IMG/VR virus record: IMGVR_UViG_2531839475_000013
Strand: one strand, 5' to 3'
DNA length: 38,377 nt
From: a virus
Lineage: Duplodnaviria; Heunggongvirae; Uroviricota; Caudoviricetes
Shown here: piece after piece, positions 5,097 through 29,786 of the stretch
How positions within the stretch are numbered: position 1 is the first letter of the stretch
Layout: the number at the start of each line of letters is the position of its first letter
Notes under the pieces: model-generated
The model's database searches: none
What the model saw: only the letters and a program-made list of their open reading frames with translations
What the model was told of the DNA's origin: nothing
Position numbers and translations under genes: made by a program

Positions 5097-5249
5097 ATGT
5101 GTAAAGCGCACCTATTCTATGGTGGGCTGTGTGGGGGCACCGAAAGGTGCGCCGGGTCCTTTGTAGCCGGTTACGCCAACCCTGCACAGTTCACCACCAA
5201 CCGATTGGCGTCGGTAGTGGTGATTAACCTAACTACAAAGGTGATCACT

Positions 5250-5936
5250 ATGACTGCTAACGTAACCCCATCTGTTTTTCATTTTGAATCAGAAGCAACC
5301 ATTCGAGCCATTGTTATTGATGGAAATCCTTGGTTTGTTGCCAAAGACGTTATTAAAGCTCTTCAACTGACAAACCCCACTATGTCAATAAAATCTCTTG
5401 ATGATGATGAAAGGGCTAAATTTAACTTAGGCCGTCAAGGCGAAACCAATATTATCAACGAGTCAGGCCTCTACACACTGATCCTCCGCTGCCGCGATGC
5501 AGTAACACCAGGCACTATCCCCTACCGCTTTCGCAAATGGGTTACAGGTGAGGTACTTCCTCAGATCCGCCGCACCGGAAGTTACATTAAAAACTCGCTC
5601 CCGCAAGAAGAACGCATAAAGATGGTTGCCGACCAGGTAGCCAACGCCACGGCGTCAGCAGTGATGCAGGCAATGAAGATAGAGAACAAAACCTACAGCG
5701 CCCCACTGAAGCCCGGCTACCGCAGCCTGATTCACTCGCCGTCTGGTGTTCTCGGCCTGACGGAGAACTCACTGCTGATGAATCTGCTGAACCAGTTACA
5801 GGAAGACGGGCACGACGTATCGGGCGCGGCGGCGGAGCTGACCACCATGTTCTGCTACATCGTCGGTGTGAGTAAATGCCTGCGTGATATCCAGACCCAC
5901 GCGGAATACATCAACGACAAAGCAGGGTTCTTCTGA
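5250..5936 (+). CDS. Bro-N domain antirepressor
   Basis: N-terminal region (VIDGNPWFVAKDVIKALQL...) matches the Bro-N/antirepressor DNA-binding domain; RBS AAAGGTGA; start chosen at the ATG at 5250 rather than the ORF-track start at 5097. Confidence 0.7.
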   Translation: MTANVTPSVFHFESEATIRAIVIDGNPWFVAKDVIKALQLTNPTMSIKSLDDDERAKFNLGRQGETNIINESGLYTLILRCRDAVTPGTIPYRFRKWVTGEVLPQIRRTGSYIKNSLPQEERIKMVADQVANATASAVMQAMKIENKTYSAPLKPGYRSLIHSPSGVLGLTENSLLMNLLNQLQEDGHDVSGAAAELTTMFCYIVGVSKCLRDIQTHAEYINDKAGFF

Positions 5937-7723: not shown

Positions 7724-7751
7724 GTTAAAAACAAGGCCGCGAAAGCGGCCT
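7724..7751 (-). terminator. intrinsic terminator ending the late operon (AGGCCGC-GAAA-GCGGCCT, T-run on minus strand)
   Basis: 7-bp GC stem with GNRA loop; on the minus strand it is followed by TGTTTTTAAC; lies between the convergent lipoprotein gene and the accessory cassette. Confidence 0.6.
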
Positions 7752-7763
7752 GTGACATGTCAC
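7752..7763. repeat. perfect 12-bp palindrome GTGACATGTCAC (copy 1 of 3)
   Basis: Identical 12-mer also at 25171..25182 and 27436..27447; abuts the terminator hairpin. Confidence 0.8.
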
Positions 7764-7766
7764 GAC

Positions 7767-8180
7767 TTATAAAGATGACTGATATTTTACAACTCTGTTC
7801 ATGGCATCTTTTTTCACCGAGCTGATATCAGTTCTTATTTTGGCTTCGTCATTACTGCTTATCATGCTATTAATTTTTTGCACTGACATGCCGTTTCTTT
7901 CAGCCATTGCACATACAGCAGCATCGTATGAAGAACTCGCTGCGATGGATATCACCTTGTTACACTCAAACACAGCACCTTCAGCAATATCAGATGCCGA
8001 TGAGGCTGGCTTGGTATAAGTCTTGACGTAGTGATCAATACAACTATCCTTCGCCGTCTTGGCAAGAGAAAAATCCATTTTAACTTTGTCGCAATATGCC
8101 TTATCAACACCGTCATAAACATCATAGGATGTCGAGCAAGCGGATATCAAAAATACCGATAACAGCAATAATTCCTTCAT
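7767..8180 (-). CDS. Cys-rich lipoprotein, last gene of the late operon (candidate exclusion lipoprotein)
   Basis: 137 aa; signal peptide with lipobox (MKELLLLSVFLISAC); six Cys in the mature part; lower G+C than the flanking virion genes. Confidence 0.6.
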   Translation of the reverse strand: MKELLLLSVFLISACSTSYDVYDGVDKAYCDKVKMDFSLAKTAKDSCIDHYVKTYTKPASSASDIAEGAVFECNKVISIAASSSYDAAVCAMAERNGMSVQKINSMISSNDEAKIRTDISSVKKDAMNRVVKYQSSL

Positions 8181-8189
8181 TGTTGTTCC

Positions 8190-10664
8190 TTATTGCGGAG
8201 TGACATCCTGAGGTCGCCACCAGTATGTCTGGTTAAACTCTTTCTTTGAACGTTGCTCCATTTTACGCAAATAGCCTGGTGAAAAATACTCCTGCATCTG
8301 GTTAAAGATCATGTGATCGAGAGCCGCCTTTAAGTACCAGAGATTCGCACCTGGCATCAGACCTTTCCCCAGCTTAACCAGATCACCACCAGTCTGCTCA
8401 TTCTTCCCTTCCACAGCATTTAACGGTATGCCCTGAGCAATCTTCACTACGTCATCAACCAGACCAGCTACCGGGCCAAGCATCGACGCCAACGCGCCGC
8501 TTCCGTACCTGGTGTGGTCAGAGAAAAGAAAATCACCATACAACCCTGCACCACCACCTTTTAAAAATGCATTTATCCAGAATTTAACCATGTTGTCACC
8601 GGTCATTTCTTTTGGATTTCTCCCATTAATAAGATCAGTAATCTGCATGGAAAGAGCACCAAGCATGGTTGTGCTTGCTAAAAACGTTGCTATATATGCT
8701 GCACGCCCACCAGCAGACGGCATCCCCATAGCTCTATGCCAGTGACGCATAACTACCGAGATAGGGAACGATTTAAACAGGAAAACACTTCTCGTTAATT
8801 CACCTTTCCATGTTCCACGCTGAAGACCAGACCCTACGAACATCTGTTCACGTGCGCCCGGTGTAATAACAGCCATATCAACTTCTTCAGTTACGGCACC
8901 GAGCAGTTTACGCATTGCCTCAAATTTCACGCGTTCAGGCTCACCAAGATGTTTAACTGCTGAATCAGGGATACGCATAATGCTTTCCGGTGTCAGCATC
9001 GTATTATTACCGTTCCCCCAGTCCTCCTGTTGCGCCAGCTTCCATACGCTCCAGTCTGTGTCAGTAATCCCTTTGCTTTTCAGGATACGAAAATCAGAGT
9101 CATCGAGGCTACGAAGGTCTGGTGTCCGTGACACTACTTCTCCCAGGCTTCCCATCATGGTTACGCCATAGGCGCGCTTGTGCGCATCTGACCATGCTGT
9201 AAGCCCACTGGCACGCATTACCGCCGTTGCCGCCCAACGAGACACAGACGGCCCCATATTATCCATCGCCCAGCGGTTAACGCTGCCAAGTAGAGATTCC
9301 ATCGCCAGGCCAGCGCGGCGCGCCCGCGCAAGTTCTGTACGGTTCGTTGGGTCCATAGCTTCAAGCTGGTTGCGAAATAACTGGTTCATTGGAAGGTTGG
9401 TAACCTTCGCAGACAGATACATGGTTCCAAGATCAGAGAACGATGACAGCAACGCGGATCCGAGTCTGCTGGCAACCAGCCAGTTGCGGATATTGTCAGA
9501 CCATCGCGCGATGTGCGGATTCGCTACAGGCTGTGTTTTTCCGGAAATAAAGTTGTACAAGTTCTCTGTTTTGTTCGCCAGACGCTCGACGCTACCGGTT
9601 TTACTCGGGTTAGCTGTTGCCGTTTCTGCCTTAACCTGATCAAGAAGGGAGCGGAAAACATGATCGGGGTTTGGGCCATATGTTTCCACCAGTGCAATAT
9701 CTTTACTGATACCTTCCAGGTGACCGACCATGATTTCCCATAGAGAGCGATCGCCATAAAGTTGCTGATATTGCAGATAGGAATCTGCATCTTTGAAATG
9801 TATCTGTCGTGATGCATTACCACGGTTAGCACGTGCGCCGGAAATTCGCATTCCGGTATCAGTAAGCTTATTCAGCCCACCAGTAGCGATCGTGTTATAA
9901 GCCTCTCCAAGAAATTCAGACAACTCGGCATCGTTCATCAGTTGTCCATCGGCTCGGATATAATATTTGCGATCCAGCTTACCTATAACATCGCTAACCC
10001 ACTTATCCTTTGATACCGACCCAACCTTTTCCATAGAATGATGTTGAGGGATCCCCCAGTTTTCGAGATAGCCAATGTCCCCACCAGCATCATTAAACCG
10101 GCGGCGCAGCAGCTCTGTAACTTCTCTCCACGCCTTAGCACCTTTTCTTGCTTTAGCATTGCCAGTATTTTGCCCCCGCATTTCATATACCAGGTCACGC
10201 ACGCCAGCTTCATCTTCAAACAGGCCAAAAAAGCGAGGATCAACTGCTTCAAATGCCTCTTGCAATTGACTCAATGCATAATCACGAGTGGCTTTTGTTC
10301 TGGATTCAACAGAGAGGAAATTCGATTTACCGTCTGCATTAAAAGCAATAGTACGGTTAAGAGCGCCAAGTTTCCCATCAGCCCCTTGATAGCTATTGAT
10401 AAATTTATCCAATCTCTGACGTGCGGCTATAGTGAGGGCCACACGACGTTTCTTTAATGCCGCTTCTCGCTGTAATTCTTCAGATGCCAATTGTGCTGCA
10501 CGATACAACCGTTCTGATTCGGAAAGTTGTCGCCACGACATCGGGTCATCACGAGCAATGGAGCGCATATTTCGATAAATGCGGTCTTCAATGTTCTGTA
10601 TTTCTCGCGCCGTTAACGTGCGCTGCGCCGCCTGCTGGACCGCTTGTATACATTCCTGTCTCAT
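8190..10664 (-). CDS. internal virion / DNA-ejection protein (T7 gp16-like position)
   Basis: 824-aa ORF inside the tail/ejection block; start overlaps the upstream stop (TAAATG) with a GAGAGG RBS; no catalytic motif recognised. Confidence 0.5.
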   Translation of the reverse strand: MRQECIQAVQQAAQRTLTAREIQNIEDRIYRNMRSIARDDPMSWRQLSESERLYRAAQLASEELQREAALKKRRVALTIAARQRLDKFINSYQGADGKLGALNRTIAFNADGKSNFLSVESRTKATRDYALSQLQEAFEAVDPRFFGLFEDEAGVRDLVYEMRGQNTGNAKARKGAKAWREVTELLRRRFNDAGGDIGYLENWGIPQHHSMEKVGSVSKDKWVSDVIGKLDRKYYIRADGQLMNDAELSEFLGEAYNTIATGGLNKLTDTGMRISGARANRGNASRQIHFKDADSYLQYQQLYGDRSLWEIMVGHLEGISKDIALVETYGPNPDHVFRSLLDQVKAETATANPSKTGSVERLANKTENLYNFISGKTQPVANPHIARWSDNIRNWLVASRLGSALLSSFSDLGTMYLSAKVTNLPMNQLFRNQLEAMDPTNRTELARARRAGLAMESLLGSVNRWAMDNMGPSVSRWAATAVMRASGLTAWSDAHKRAYGVTMMGSLGEVVSRTPDLRSLDDSDFRILKSKGITDTDWSVWKLAQQEDWGNGNNTMLTPESIMRIPDSAVKHLGEPERVKFEAMRKLLGAVTEEVDMAVITPGAREQMFVGSGLQRGTWKGELTRSVFLFKSFPISVVMRHWHRAMGMPSAGGRAAYIATFLASTTMLGALSMQITDLINGRNPKEMTGDNMVKFWINAFLKGGGAGLYGDFLFSDHTRYGSGALASMLGPVAGLVDDVVKIAQGIPLNAVEGKNEQTGGDLVKLGKGLMPGANLWYLKAALDHMIFNQMQEYFSPGYLRKMEQRSKKEFNQTYWWRPQDVTPQ

Positions 10665-24594: not shown

Positions 24595-24671
24595 GTGGCA
24601 TTAGCTCAGCTGGACAGAGCAACCGCCTTCTAAGCGGTTGGTCGCAGGTTCGAATCCTGCATGCCACGCCA
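24595..24671 (+). tRNA. tRNA-Arg (anticodon UCU)
   Basis: Hand-folded cloverleaf: acceptor GTGGCAT/ATGCCAC, D-arm GCTC-AGCTGGACA-GAGC, anticodon stem ACCGC/GCGGT with loop CTTCTAA (anticodon TCT), T-arm GCAGG-TTCGAAT-CCTGC, discriminator G, encoded CCA. Confidence 0.9.
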
Positions 24672-24869: not shown

Positions 24870-25166
24870 ATGAGCGAAACATCAACAGTATCTTTCTCCA
24901 CTGCTTTGTCATCACTCAAAGATGGTAAGCGCATTGCACGTGCCGGATGGAATGGCAAAGGCATGTATCTGCAACTGGTTAAGCCACCGCAATCGGCCAC
25001 TCCGAACGATTGGCGATTTGACGTTACATGCGGTGACGAGTATACATTTGTACCTGGCGTTAAACTTCTACCGTGGATTGGGATGAAAACTGCTGACGGT
25101 TGCTTTGTACCGTGGCTGGCATCTCAAACCGATCTGCTATCTGATGATTGGATTGTAATTCAATAA
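24870..25166 (+). CDS. DUF2829-like small protein (Tad2-like candidate anti-defence sponge)
   Basis: 98 aa; N-terminal ALSSLKDGKRIARAGWNGKGMYLQLV and C-terminal ASQTDLLSDDWIVIQ match my recollection of the DUF2829 signature; RBS AAGGTGA. Not verified by HMM. Confidence 0.5.
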   Translation: MSETSTVSFSTALSSLKDGKRIARAGWNGKGMYLQLVKPPQSATPNDWRFDVTCGDEYTFVPGVKLLPWIGMKTADGCFVPWLASQTDLLSDDWIVIQ

Positions 25167-25170
25167 CACC

Positions 25171-25182
25171 GTGACATGTCAC
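25171..25182. repeat. perfect 12-bp palindrome GTGACATGTCAC (copy 2 of 3)
   Basis: Starts 5 nt after the stop of the DUF2829-like gene and 4 nt before the terminator hairpin. Confidence 0.8.
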
Positions 25183-25186
25183 AAAC

Positions 25187-25214
25187 AGCCAGCCTATGAG
25201 CTGGCTTTGTTTTA
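25187..25214 (+). terminator. intrinsic terminator (AGCCAGC-CTATGA-GCTGGCT then TTGTTTTA)
   Basis: 7-bp stem, 6-nt loop, T-rich tail; ends the plus-strand tRNA/DUF2829 unit just before the convergent TerL stop. Confidence 0.6.
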
Positions 25215-25256: not shown

Positions 25257-26732
25257 TTAAGCATAGGGATCGTAATCTGTGATGGCCTTGCCTTGCTGGT
25301 TCTGCTGACCGGGAATTCGCAGACGCTTCGACACAGGGAACGCAAACGTCAGCAGTAGCGCATCGCCTTTACCAGGAGAACGCCCAAGTCGTTCTTTGAT
25401 ATCTTCCTTCGGTTCGATAACGATTTTACCGTCCACTCGAACTTTGTACTCTGCCGCCGACAGATCGTCCGCTGTTTCCTGGTCATCCAGCATGCCGCCG
25501 AGCCTCAGCCATGTCTTGCATGAGTTGAACATCTCCCCACGCTTGTTGAGCATCTGCGGGTCAGTAGACGCGCCACCGAACGGAACAAGTTGCCATGTAC
25601 GACCCCAGCCGTCACCGATTGACTTCAGACCAGTTCCGTAACCGAAGTCGATGAACACTGCGTCAGCCTGATACTGGTCTTCAAAGTCAGCGATACGCTT
25701 CGCCATAATCAGATCGTCGGTAGTCTTGTTGCCAGTCCACAGCACCTTACTGTGTAGCCCCTGCCGCAGGTATATCACCGCGTCATCAACGCCTGAATAT
25801 GCCGGGTCAACACCGATTATCACCGGAGCATGCGCCACCTGCGCAGCAGTTACCACCCGTTTCATTGCCTCGTCAGTAAGGCCGGTAGGGATAAACTGCA
25901 ATTCAGATGCATCAGGGAATATGCCGCGCACACGGATTTTAACGAAGTCGCTGTCTTCCCCGTAGTCATCAACCCATTTCTGCAACTGCTGTTTGTTAGT
26001 GCCTTCCACCGTTCGGCTGTCAATCTGCGCAGTTTTCCAGCGGTGTTTATATTTGCGGAAACATTCGCGAAAACGCCCGGTATTACGCGTCGGGTTTCCG
26101 AACGCCACCCAGATAATCTCAGTGTCTTCGTCCGTAAGCGCACCCTCAGCAACTTCCCACACCAGATCCGCAATGTTCGACGCTTCATCGAATACCAAGA
26201 TGATGCGTTTGCGCTCATTGTGTAATCCGGCGAATGCCTCAGTGTTGTGCTCAGACCAGGGGATTGCGTCAGCTCGCCACCGCTTGTCGTGCCCAGGGTC
26301 ATTGCCGTACATCGCGGTAGCGGTGCAGGTGAACCAGTCTTTCGTGATAGCAAGGTTCGACCACTTGATAATTTCAGGCCAGGTCTTCGTTCGTAGCTGG
26401 TTGTCGGTGTTGGCGGTCACCACGACCTTACAATCCTCGCAAGTGGACATGCCCCAGTTGATCAGCATTGAGATGAATGCGGATTTACCAATACCGTGAC
26501 CAGAAGCACGTGCCAGCATAAGCGGCTGATATCGCGTCTCTGGATTCTGCAGGTGATCACGTATCTCTCGGAACGCATCGGCCTGCCACTGACGTGGGCC
26601 GGTGGCATGTGCCAGTTCAGTACCCTCTTCCCCCCACGGGAAAGCATAGAGGGCATAGCCAAGCGGATCGTGAGTGAACCCTGCAATATCCTCGATCAAC
26701 TGCTCTTCAGGAGATAACGCTGTATCTTTCAC
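25257..26732 (-). CDS. terminase large subunit
   Basis: 491 aa; Walker A-like ARASGHGIGKS near the N-terminus, acidic nuclease-type C-terminal half; 4-nt overlap with TerS. Confidence 0.85.
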   Translation of the reverse strand: MKDTALSPEEQLIEDIAGFTHDPLGYALYAFPWGEEGTELAHATGPRQWQADAFREIRDHLQNPETRYQPLMLARASGHGIGKSAFISMLINWGMSTCEDCKVVVTANTDNQLRTKTWPEIIKWSNLAITKDWFTCTATAMYGNDPGHDKRWRADAIPWSEHNTEAFAGLHNERKRIILVFDEASNIADLVWEVAEGALTDEDTEIIWVAFGNPTRNTGRFRECFRKYKHRWKTAQIDSRTVEGTNKQQLQKWVDDYGEDSDFVKIRVRGIFPDASELQFIPTGLTDEAMKRVVTAAQVAHAPVIIGVDPAYSGVDDAVIYLRQGLHSKVLWTGNKTTDDLIMAKRIADFEDQYQADAVFIDFGYGTGLKSIGDGWGRTWQLVPFGGASTDPQMLNKRGEMFNSCKTWLRLGGMLDDQETADDLSAAEYKVRVDGKIVIEPKEDIKERLGRSPGKGDALLLTFAFPVSKRLRIPGQQNQQGKAITDYDPYA

Positions 26733-27325
26733 TGATTACCATCCTGACGTTCTTTGAGTCGCTTCCTGGCTGCTGCTATGCGATCAGCAATTGTCACATT
26801 CACATTAACATCCAGACGTTCTTTGAACGCGTTGACATCAACATGCTTACCAATCAGCTCAAGGTTCTTCACCTTGTCAGGCCATTTAATTTTTTTGAGG
26901 ATTGTCTCTATCGAATCCTCATTCATGTTCATGATGGTCGATGACAGATCAAAGCCGCTAAGCGTAGTGCGCCAGATTTTCGGCCACTCGCGAATTGGCT
27001 TAAGGCTTCCATCGTCGTTGAGGATATCAATCACGTCCATCTGGTCGATCTCCACCAGGCGCATGAGAACGTAATCAGCACTGACGCGCATTCGTTTGTT
27101 GCGCTCCTCCATCAACTCGGCAATCCGTTTTTGAATGCGTTCATCGCGCATCATTACACTGGCTTTAACTGCCGCTGTATTTGGGGAGAATCCTGCGTTA
27201 ATCGCTGCCTGAGTCTGGTTTTCAGGCGTTTTGATGTATGACTGGCAATAAGCCTCCTGCATTGCTGTGAGCGGCTTAAATTGCGTTGATTTGCGTTTAT
27301 AGGTTTTAGGTTCAGCAGGCATCAT
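26729..27325 (-). CDS. terminase small subunit
   Basis: Start placed at the ATG doublet at 27325 (MMPAEPK...); region LTAMQEAYCQSYIKTPENQTQAAINAGFSPNTA matches the small-terminase HTH motif. The ORF-track start at 27403 is a TTG giving an implausible TITTTVTITT leader. Confidence 0.7.
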   Translation of the reverse strand: MMPAEPKTYKRKSTQFKPLTAMQEAYCQSYIKTPENQTQAAINAGFSPNTAAVKASVMMRDERIQKRIAELMEERNKRMRVSADYVLMRLVEIDQMDVIDILNDDGSLKPIREWPKIWRTTLSGFDLSSTIMNMNEDSIETILKKIKWPDKVKNLELIGKHVDVNAFKERLDVNVNVTIADRIAAARKRLKERQDGNQ

Positions 27326-27368
27326 AACCACCGTGGTAATAGTTACCGTTGTGGTAATAGTACCATGC

Positions 27369-27394
27369 AAAATAAAGCCGCCATAGTTGGCGGC
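27369..27394 (-). terminator. intrinsic terminator upstream of TerS (GCCGCC-ATAGTT-GGCGGC, then TTTATTTT on minus strand)
   Basis: 6-bp GC stem followed on the minus strand by a T-run; sits between the last early gene and TerS (tR'-like position). Confidence 0.5.
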
Positions 27395-27435: not shown

Positions 27436-27447
27436 GTGACATGTCAC
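27436..27447. repeat. perfect 12-bp palindrome GTGACATGTCAC (copy 3 of 3)
   Basis: Overlaps the stop codon of the zinc-ribbon gene, ~45 bp upstream (minus-strand sense) of the terminator before TerS. Confidence 0.8.
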
Positions 27448-27782
27448 ACTATTAATTTCGTTTCATGCCAGCCTTTAGTCACCCAGCATTGCGAGTCACC
27501 ATTACACGGGCATGAATTAACTGGAACTCTCTCGCCGCACTTACCGCAACGTTTTCTGCTGATCGATTTTATACGCCCGCGCACGCGTGCATCATCCTGG
27601 CGGATCAGTAACGCTACATACTCACCAAATTCGTAAGGCGCACGCCCGGGGCGACGCGTGGCACAGTTACGCTCCAGCATTTCAATTTCCTGAGCATCAA
27701 GCACAATTTCCAGCTTACGCACACCAGATGCAGCTTGTCTAGCTCTCTGAGCGGCTTTGCGCTCTGCTGCTGATTTAGCCAT
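27444..27782 (-). CDS. small basic protein with C-terminal Cys-rich zinc-ribbon-like motif (candidate late-gene regulator)
   Basis: 112 aa; Arg/Lys-rich N-terminus, C-terminal CGKCGERVPVNSCPCNGDSQC; last gene before the terminator/TerS junction. Confidence 0.35.
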   Translation of the reverse strand: MAKSAAERKAAQRARQAASGVRKLEIVLDAQEIEMLERNCATRRPGRAPYEFGEYVALLIRQDDARVRGRIKSISRKRCGKCGERVPVNSCPCNGDSQCWVTKGWHETKLIV

Positions 27783-29226: not shown

Positions 29227-29786
29227 TTTTGCTCGCCTCCCTGTTCTTCCAGAAAAATACGCATAGCCTCAAGCATCTCTTCGGTGTCATACGGTGACAA
29301 CTTGTCACGCAGGATGTGTTCAATGCTGTTAATGAACTTGCGGATTGCTTTGCGTTCAATTTCAGCCAGGAAAGCGTCGGTGGCTGGGGTTTCAACACGG
29401 ATGCTGTCGCGCAAGATGAAAAATGCATCAAGCATTCCAGCCTCCGGCACTTCATCCTGATGCTTCTCATACGCATCAAGAGCCTTCATCATCTCAGGTC
29501 CGAATGGTTGAGGGTGCGCAGACTTCAGCCCCGCATTCTCCGCCGCCAGCGCCGAAAACTTCTCGTGTGCCAACTTAACAGCTGCATCAGCCTGCTTAAT
29601 TGACTCAATCGCTCTCTGGTGGTCTTCGGCCAGCGCATTAGCACGCACCAGTTGCACTTCCAGTTGCGTTGCCAAATCGCTGATCAGCTTTGCCACACTG
29701 CGCATATCAACGGCGCCACATTCTGCTTTCAGTTCCGAAGCCATCTCATGCCCGGCGGTAACTAACCCTTTGATATTACTTTCCAT
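29223..29786 (-). CDS. hypothetical early protein (coiled-coil)
   Basis: 187 aa, largely helical; in the early-left gene block. Confidence 0.4.
   Translation of the reverse strand: MESNIKGLVTAGHEMASELKAECGAVDMRSVAKLISDLATQLEVQLVRANALAEDHQRAIESIKQADAAVKLAHEKFSALAAENAGLKSAHPQPFGPEMMKALDAYEKHQDEVPEAGMLDAFFILRDSIRVETPATDAFLAEIERKAIRKFINSIEHILRDKLSPYDTEEMLEAMRIFLEEQGGEQK

Follow-up and report, generated by a model that had tools for sequence, protein, structure and literature searches.

The window, a DNA stretch of 38,377 nucleotides from IMG/VR virus record IMGVR_UViG_2531839475_000013, was found to contain three exact copies of the 12-bp palindrome GTGACATGTCAC, at 7752-7763 (site 1), 25171-25182 (site 2) and 27436-27447 (site 3), the last overlapping the stop codon of the gene (27444..27782, minus strand) for a 112-aa protein of the epsilon15 gp49 / N15 gp46 family. 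Judged by their co-occurrence, the specificity of the site and the selection on it, the gp49-family protein and the palindromic site are very probably a conserved cognate pair. The reading preferred here, to which a probability of about 0.55 is given, is that a 14-bp site would be recognised by a dimer of this ribbon-helix-helix (RHH) and zinc-ribbon protein, controlling the traffic of RNA polymerase at three boundaries; the boundary-control role of the bound protein, taken by itself, is put forward tentatively. The finding is real and is wider than an earlier sequence-only reading of this DNA could show.

The whole window was scanned, and GTGACATGTCAC was found at these three places only, the next-best match carrying two mismatches. 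No match was found in 100 dinucleotide-preserving shuffles, which bears out the earlier claim that a 12-mer present three times is far above expectation. A chance origin of the three copies was excluded by the shuffles together with the spacing counts in the homolog loci given below. The window is a Uetakevirus prophage, of the epsilon15/phiV10 type, whose late genes lie on the minus strand.

Pairing of the palindrome with gp49-family genes

The stop codon of the gp49-family gene was found to lie inside GTGAC-NN-GTCAC at about 180 of the 196 homolog loci, and at some other loci the motif was found 1-30 nt beyond the stop. The site was retained when it was shifted 5-9 nt past the stop, and it was likewise retained in subgroups only 30-35% identical. 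The two central nucleotides followed the lineage, being AT in the Uetakeviruses, TG in the N15-like phages and GC in the Yersinia P2-like phages.

Joint occurrence of gene and site was found in at least six phage lineages that are unrelated to one another, among them the Uetakeviruses, Pectobacterium phage ZF40, the telomere phages N15 and phiKO2, the Yersinia P2-like phages and Vibrio phage K303. Three sites each were contained in the window, epsilon15, Tyrion, ZF40, N15, phiKO2 and K303; most genomes contained three, and ST11-OXA245phi3.2 (L213) contained four. ZF40, a myovirus with a lambdoid layout and a Q-like gene of its own, was found to contain GTGACATGTCAC three times, one copy being placed 2 nt past the stop of the homolog. 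In N15, the stop of gp46 was found within GTGACTGGTCAC, and two more copies of this 12-mer were present, one within repA and one ahead of the terminator in front of the homologs of phiKO2 icd-antA-antB; phiKO2 contained the same three sites. The stop of the homolog in the Yersinia P2-like phage was found within GTGACGCGTCAC, and the K303 genome, whose homolog is 32% identical, contained three GTGAC-NN-GTCAC sites. PY54, whose repA is homologous but which has no counterpart of the gene, and P2, which also lacks it, contained no site.

On this comparison the general link of the palindrome is to the gp49-family gene, and its link to terminators is local. The sequence-only reading had listed a binding site for a phage factor among its options and had named the zinc-ribbon protein encoded at 27444..27782 as a candidate; the option is now strongly supported by comparative genomics, and the candidate holds in view of the shared travel of gene and site.

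Three observations were made on variants of this arrangement. In N15 (L008, 28496-28561), a promoter-like TTGACG-18-TAGAGT element begins about 25 nt past the intergenic site and is followed by the annotated terminator ahead of the icd-antA-antB homologs, so that this site may bear on anti-repressor control. In L191 (about 9830-9860), ATTACCGCGCCGGTAAT and not a GTGAC-type site was found to follow a homolog that has 70% identity to ZF40 gp22, and ATTACCGCGCCGGTAAT resembles the epsilon15 repressor-type operator. One subgroup was found to contain the asymmetric GTGACCGGACAC, which is present in Aeromonas phage 13AhydR10PP (L197) at 116, 809, 2563 and 28983 and also in L205, L208 and L210, frequently as two inverted copies 6 bp apart, directly past the gene; one copy in 13AhydR10PP lies 14 nt ahead of the gene start. 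No covariation of the protein with half-site variants was found, the GTGACCGGACAC copies being imperfect members of paired sites in that one subgroup.

Specificity of the site and selection on it

GTGAC-N2-GTCAC was found 311 times in 3.48 Mb of homolog loci, whereas spacings of 0, 1, 3 or 4 bp and everted half-sites were found 0-1 times. In 99% of 134 distinct contexts, a pyrimidine stood 5′ of the 12-mer and a purine 3′ of it, so that the conserved unit is the 14-bp palindrome YGTGAC-NN-GTCACR. Among 21 distinct sequences of the N15-type repA copy, 0 of the 12 site columns were found to vary, against 40 of the 120 flank columns, nearly all of them codon third positions. The invariance of the site beside variable flanks argues for selection on the DNA itself, and by this alignment the repA copy is under selection beyond coding. 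The literature searched for the 12-mer, Uetakevirus transcription and SPC32H contained nothing relevant on this element.

The gp49-family protein

The proposed binder belongs to PHROG 536, which is annotated 'transcriptional regulator'. Nearly all records label members of the family 'hypothetical'. Neither a Pfam nor an NCBIfam family was matched above threshold and no match to the Q families was found; the sub-threshold matches were to CopG/RHH_5 and zinc-ribbon families only. The family was found to contain 148 clusters at 50% identity among 1.8 billion representatives, with proteins of about 105-135 aa, and was restricted to phages and phage-plasmids. A basic helix at the N-terminus (RK..QR.R), a PY..EY..LIR segment and four cysteines were found to be conserved.

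The AlphaFold (AF2) model, with a predicted local distance difference test (pLDDT) score of 93, contained a ribbon-helix-helix and a Cys4 zinc ribbon, with an extended segment at residues 20-29 and helices at 30-42 and 52-74. The depth of the alignment mattered, a shallow alignment giving pLDDT 63 and a deeper one pLDDT 93. From this model the 112-aa protein is confidently predicted to have an RHH fold, and the best structural matches of the model were RHH proteins (P22 Arc/Mnt, CopG, MazE, ParD and TacA). A sequence search of solved structures gave no match for the protein, the BFVD fold search gave only a fragment of the same family, and PADLOC gave no defence-system match.

Like the RHH repressors and antitoxins named above, which are small dimers acting on short palindromic or repeated DNA, the phage protein combines a predicted RHH fold with a short palindromic site that co-occurs with it. 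The known operators lie in the promoter of the protein's own operon, whereas the constant phage site was found at the 3′ end, at or over the stop codon, with the other sites dispersed and some of them intragenic; an autoregulatory operator in the own-operon promoter is thus not what was found. The zinc ribbon is a further difference from these repressors. The finding fits best among the small RHH regulators with palindromic operators, and is unusual in its stop-codon site, in half-sites that are kept down to about 30% identity of the protein and in being identical to matS in its half-sites.

The three sites and their conservation in the Uetakeviruses

Site 1, the core of a YGTGAC-NN-GTCACR unit, lies at the end of the late structural operon with an accessory island opposite, 3 nt from the stop of the last late-operon open reading frame (ORF) (7767..8180, minus strand; PHROG 8691), a variable gene whose slot was filled by different ORFs among relatives. 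Site 2 separates the 3′ end of TerL from a Tad2-like (anti-Thoeris) accessory gene (24870..25166, plus strand; Pfam PF11195, E=3.2e-24), which is convergent with TerL and whose stop lies 4 nt from the site. Site 3 overlaps the TGA stop of the gp49-family gene at the junction of the early-right operon and TerS. Between sites 3 and 2 lies the TerS-TerL packaging operon (25257..27322, minus strand), assigned by Pfam Terminase_2 and by homology to the phiV10 and epsilon15 terminases; by epsilon15 homology TerS starts at about 27322, which corrects 27403. Both the closeness of the copies to stop codons and their positions at three module boundaries, as claimed from the sequence before, were confirmed for every copy.

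At only about 80% DNA identity and with different flanks, epsilon15 was found to contain three exact copies of the 12-mer in the same three syntenic places, and Enterobacter phage Tyrion also contained three exact copies syntenic with the window. phiV10 contained two exact copies, and a third with one mismatch, GTGACATGTTAC, spans the record junction 39101 / 1 once the record is circularised. The start of the phiV10 GenBank record thus falls within site 3; a reading of the site as cos, pac or a genome end was rejected, since this start merely follows the stop of the last gene and the epsilon15 record starts elsewhere. The sites were also retained in SPN9TCW, Klebsiella BUCT711 and ST11-OXA245phi3.2.

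A syntenic copy of site 1 was found in epsilon15, phiV10, Tyrion, SPN9TCW, BUCT711 and ST11-OXA245phi3.2 despite the differing neighbour ORF, and the homology between the window and phiV10 was found to stop exactly at the edge of this site. Site 2 was syntenic in epsilon15, phiV10 and Tyrion, and its centre in ST11-OXA245phi3.2 was AC and not AT, a change which indicates that the conserved part is the half-sites. Among 72 close relatives, site 2 was present in 47 and point-mutated in 8. Its flanks, clustered ungapped at 80% identity, formed 3 clusters on the TerL side and 12 on the Tad2-like side, where at least five clearly different sequence types start at the site. In 6 of 85 close relatives, site 3 departed from the exact motif at the stop, by point mutation in the example examined.

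Terminators and the proposed role of the bound protein

Each site was found to be accompanied by a hairpin identified by pattern scan and folding. The late-operon terminator (7724..7751, minus strand; hairpin 7751..7734 followed by a T-tract; fold -17.7 kcal/mol) lies 0 nt from site 1. The terminator of the Tad2-like unit (25187..25214, plus strand; hairpin 25187..25206) lies 4 nt past site 2 and is annotated as such in the phiV10 and epsilon15 records. The terminator between the early-right operon and TerS (27369..27394, minus strand; hairpin 27394..27377) lies 41 nt past site 3 and is annotated in epsilon15. All three contained a G+C-rich hairpin and a U-tract at the end of a unit, as expected of intrinsic terminators, and the palindrome was found outside the hairpins. 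The earlier statement that a terminator lies directly downstream is therefore accurate for sites 1 and 2, whereas for site 3 it applies only loosely. The association holds in the Uetakeviruses but it is not general, copies being intragenic in ZF40 and N15 and an ORF following site 3 in 25 of about 80 close relatives. In those 25 (L015, L033 and 23 more), the extra ORF (MPKIRYDLEDM...) has its own ribosome-binding site and starts right past site 3, and no terminator was found there.

The predicted duplex target of the 112-aa protein contains YGTGACATGTCACR. The protein would be made from the early-right operon during lytic growth, and an RHH dimer would read the two GTGAC half-sites in duplex DNA, with the N-terminal basic helix (RK..QR.R) and the RHH sheet as the probable reading surface. 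This mode of binding is suggested by the predicted fold, by a two-fold symmetry that extends to the flanks, by the freedom of the 2-bp centre and by the invariant basic helix. The occupied sites would lie at three boundaries of transcription units, each beside an intrinsic terminator that acts in one direction. Since such one-directional terminators stand at convergent or consecutive junctions, the bound protein would block the opposite polymerase or alter read-through; it may be a roadblock or an insulator, closing the boundary on the side left uncovered by the terminator, or a modulator of read-through.

Several findings weigh against this proposal. The pairing of protein and site is drawn from their co-occurrence, and the constant site lies at the 3′ end of the gene, unlike a classical autoregulatory operator. 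A single site was found in the Yersinia P2-like phages, two of the ZF40 copies and one N15 copy (in repA) lie within other genes, and sites in K303 and N15 were found just ahead of ribosome-binding sites, some about 20 nt before start codons. The ORF inserted past site 3 stands in place of a terminator in the 25 close relatives, and site 2 may be dispensable in view of the 8 of 72 relatives in which it is point-mutated.

A broader form of the proposal, in which the protein marks one to four YGTGAC-NN-GTCACR sites per phage, its own stop included, as a widespread regulatory module serving either as a boundary element or as a MatP-like bridge, is possible but doubtful. The same doubt attaches, jointly with it, to the idea that the matS-like half-sites arose either because the protein is a remote relative of MatP or because the phage imitates the system by which the host organises its chromosome. 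A classical upstream activator was rejected as the general model, sites 1 and 2 lying 380-790 bp from the next late promoter-like operator (epsilon15) and some K303 and N15 sites only about 20 nt ahead of start codons.

Alternative explanations

An unlikely alternative is that the protein is a late antiterminator like lambda Q or RfaH, which loads on RNA polymerase at the sites and passes the following terminators, giving one long late transcript from TerS-TerL through the structural genes and beyond. As in the lambda arrangement of Q with the Q-binding element (QBE) and pR′-tR′, the gene was found to be the last of the early-right operon, followed by the presence of the site, a terminator and, immediately downstream, the late gene TerS, which is the Q position of lambdoid phages. 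In K303, L201, L202 and L209 the homolog is placed shortly before genes for lysis or packaging, and K303 has the order of site, promoter-like element, strong terminator and holin; a place at the early/late junction is thus shared by the Uetakeviruses, K303 and several metagenomic phages. Each of the three window sites stands ahead of a terminator when read in that terminator's own direction, and epsilon15 and phiV10 contain no annotated Q-like gene. However, the protein has no homology to the Q family, genuine Q-like proteins were found beside it in N15, phiKO2 and ZF40 and an Ogr-sized regulator in the Yersinia P2-like phage, and no convincing conserved promoter or pause element was found by the sites; a weak promoter-like match that overlaps site 3 was not conserved among relatives. 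Phage sites are also present at the ends of operons and within genes, the terminator of site 2 points opposite to late transcription, the lysis genes of epsilon15 have no preceding site, and TerS apparently has its own extended -10 promoter under a repressor-type operator (described below).

A role like that of MatP, with dimers at dispersed sites bridging and looping the phage genome for replication, packaging or protection and affecting transcription indirectly, is rather improbable. The site of MatP, matS, is GTGACRNYGTCAC, the 13-bp GTGAC-RNY-GTCAC with a 3-bp centre. Both sites are palindromic with identical GTGAC/GTCAC half-sites, both proteins use an RHH (modelled for the phage protein) for dimerisation and DNA binding, and both act on a limited number of dispersed sites. 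Such a role would suit the small fixed number of about three dispersed sites per genome, whatever their gene context, and the two sites that bracket TerS-TerL in the Uetakeviruses. The phage spacer, however, is 2 bp and not 3 bp in all sites, by which identity with matS was rejected, and the sites of the phage protein are found on a phage genome and linked to the gene of their proposed binder. No homology to MatP was detected by hhalign (probability 0.1). Where MatP has its four-helix bundle and coiled coil, the phage protein carries a basic helix at the N-terminus and a Cys4 zinc ribbon at the C-terminus, no coiled coil being predicted; its tetramerisation has no evidence behind it, and the single site in the Yersinia P2-like phages indicates that bridging is not a general function.

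Little credence is given to a recombination boundary, an option already named by the sequence-only reading; on this view accessory cassettes would be swapped between phages at the conserved palindrome, a short sequence, and the terminator beside it. Variable DNA does abut sites 1 and 2, with the break in homology to phiV10 exactly at the edge of site 1 and the 12 clusters of the variable side beginning at site 2 while the TerL side is near constant (3 clusters), and these phages encode RecT and an exonuclease. Variable flanks are, however, equally expected round any constrained site in an accessory island, and 12-14 bp is short for an exchange driven by homology. The invariant copies in repA, in a cII-like gene and in other genes, the strict 2-bp spacing with its Y/R flanks and the tie to one gene's stop codon in unrelated phages are all left unexplained by it. 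The earlier idea fits the variable neighbourhoods of sites 1 and 2 and fails on the intragenic copies and on the link to the gene.

It is very improbable that the element acts as RNA, as a small hairpin (GUGA-CNNG-UCAC) serving as a signal for processing, stability or protein binding at 3′ ends and between cistrons. Every window copy is transcribed and stands just after a stop codon, copy 3 folds as a small hairpin in the minimum-free-energy structure, and several sites of N15 and K303 lie just ahead of ribosome-binding sites. The half-sites, however, were invariant and contained no compensatory changes in a family that reaches down to 30% identity, the opposite of what is expected of a structural stem. 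The 2-nt centre cannot form a loop, which leaves at most 4 base pairs, and copies 1 and 2 formed no hairpin in the predicted fold. The symmetric Y/R flanks suit a two-fold DNA site, and the asymmetric N15 site was found in either orientation with respect to transcription.

The host range of the gp49 family (Enterobacterales, Vibrio and Aeromonas) is roughly that of MatP. That a host factor (MatP, SlmA or CRP) and not the phage protein binds the sites is nevertheless hardly credible, for the likeness to matS, to the SlmA site GTGAGTACTCAC and, loosely, to CRP half-sites fails against a single site with the 3-bp centre of matS beside 311 with the 2-bp centre in the homolog loci, against a C at position 5 where SlmA requires G and against the 6-bp spacer required by CRP, and a host factor would neither track the stop codon of one phage gene nor have its sites missing from PY54 and P2.

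Other DNA sites compared

The SlmA-binding site shares with the phage site a 12-bp palindrome of the same geometry, GTGA-x-NN-x-TCAC. Binding by SlmA, a TetR-type helix-turn-helix protein, needs the G at position 5 and is impaired when it is mutated, whereas position 5 was C in every phage site, by which an identity of the two was rejected. The likeness to CRP-type half-sites that had been pointed out before proved superficial: in the CRP site (TGTGA-N6-TCACA) the spacer is 6 bp, whereas 4 bp separate GTGA and TCAC here, and the conserved unit is GTGAC-N2-GTCAC with Y/R flanks. The SopB centromere sites of N15 and phiKO2 are likewise a few identical palindromes scattered in a phage genome, some of them in or near regions of replication and late control, but their sequence, GTGCGACCACGGTCGCAC, and their positions differ and their binder is of the ParB type, so the phage partition sites were rejected as the identity of the palindrome.

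The operator annotated for the epsilon15 'repressor' near the equivalent places was found to belong to a separate palindrome family, TTACC-N5/6-GGTAA, and this difference in sequence rules out the 12-mer as that operator. The window contained nine copies of TTACC-N5-GGTAA (4968, 6007, 24259, 27343, 30196, 30258, 32565, 33277 and 33339), which are grouped around the repressor gene, with others standing a short way ahead of late blocks (TerS and a gp3-like gene). The copy at 27343..27357 lies immediately upstream of TerS and overlaps the extended -10-like element TGGTACTAT (27365..27357, minus strand), which is kept in epsilon15. This arrangement suggests that the prophage repressor represses late promoters directly.

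Significance and other features of the window

The exact predicted DNA target makes the function of the gp49 family testable, and this family spans Uetakeviruses, N15-type phage-plasmids and P2-like, ZF40-like and Vibrio phages. A stop codon within GTGAC-NN-GTCAC can serve in annotation as a flag for a member of the family. In the Uetakeviruses the sites mark the junctions of early, late and accessory transcription, which bears on gene control in phages of the epsilon15/phiV10 type. If the bound protein does act as a roadblock or insulator, the pair would be a compact and portable part for the control of transcription. As the site differs from matS only in the length of the spacer and the protein shares the fold class of MatP, their evolutionary relation merits study.

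The accessory island between TerL and the portal gene, which holds the Tad2-like gene, was also found to contain a tRNA-Arg gene with anticodon TCT (24595-24671, plus strand). The accessory island past site 1 contained an antirepressor-like gene with a Bro-N domain (5097-5936, plus strand), flanked on both sides by TTACC-N5-GGTAA copies (4968 and 6007). One GTGAC-AACTT-GTCAC with a 5-bp spacer was found in the early region at 29294-29308 and is probably due to chance.
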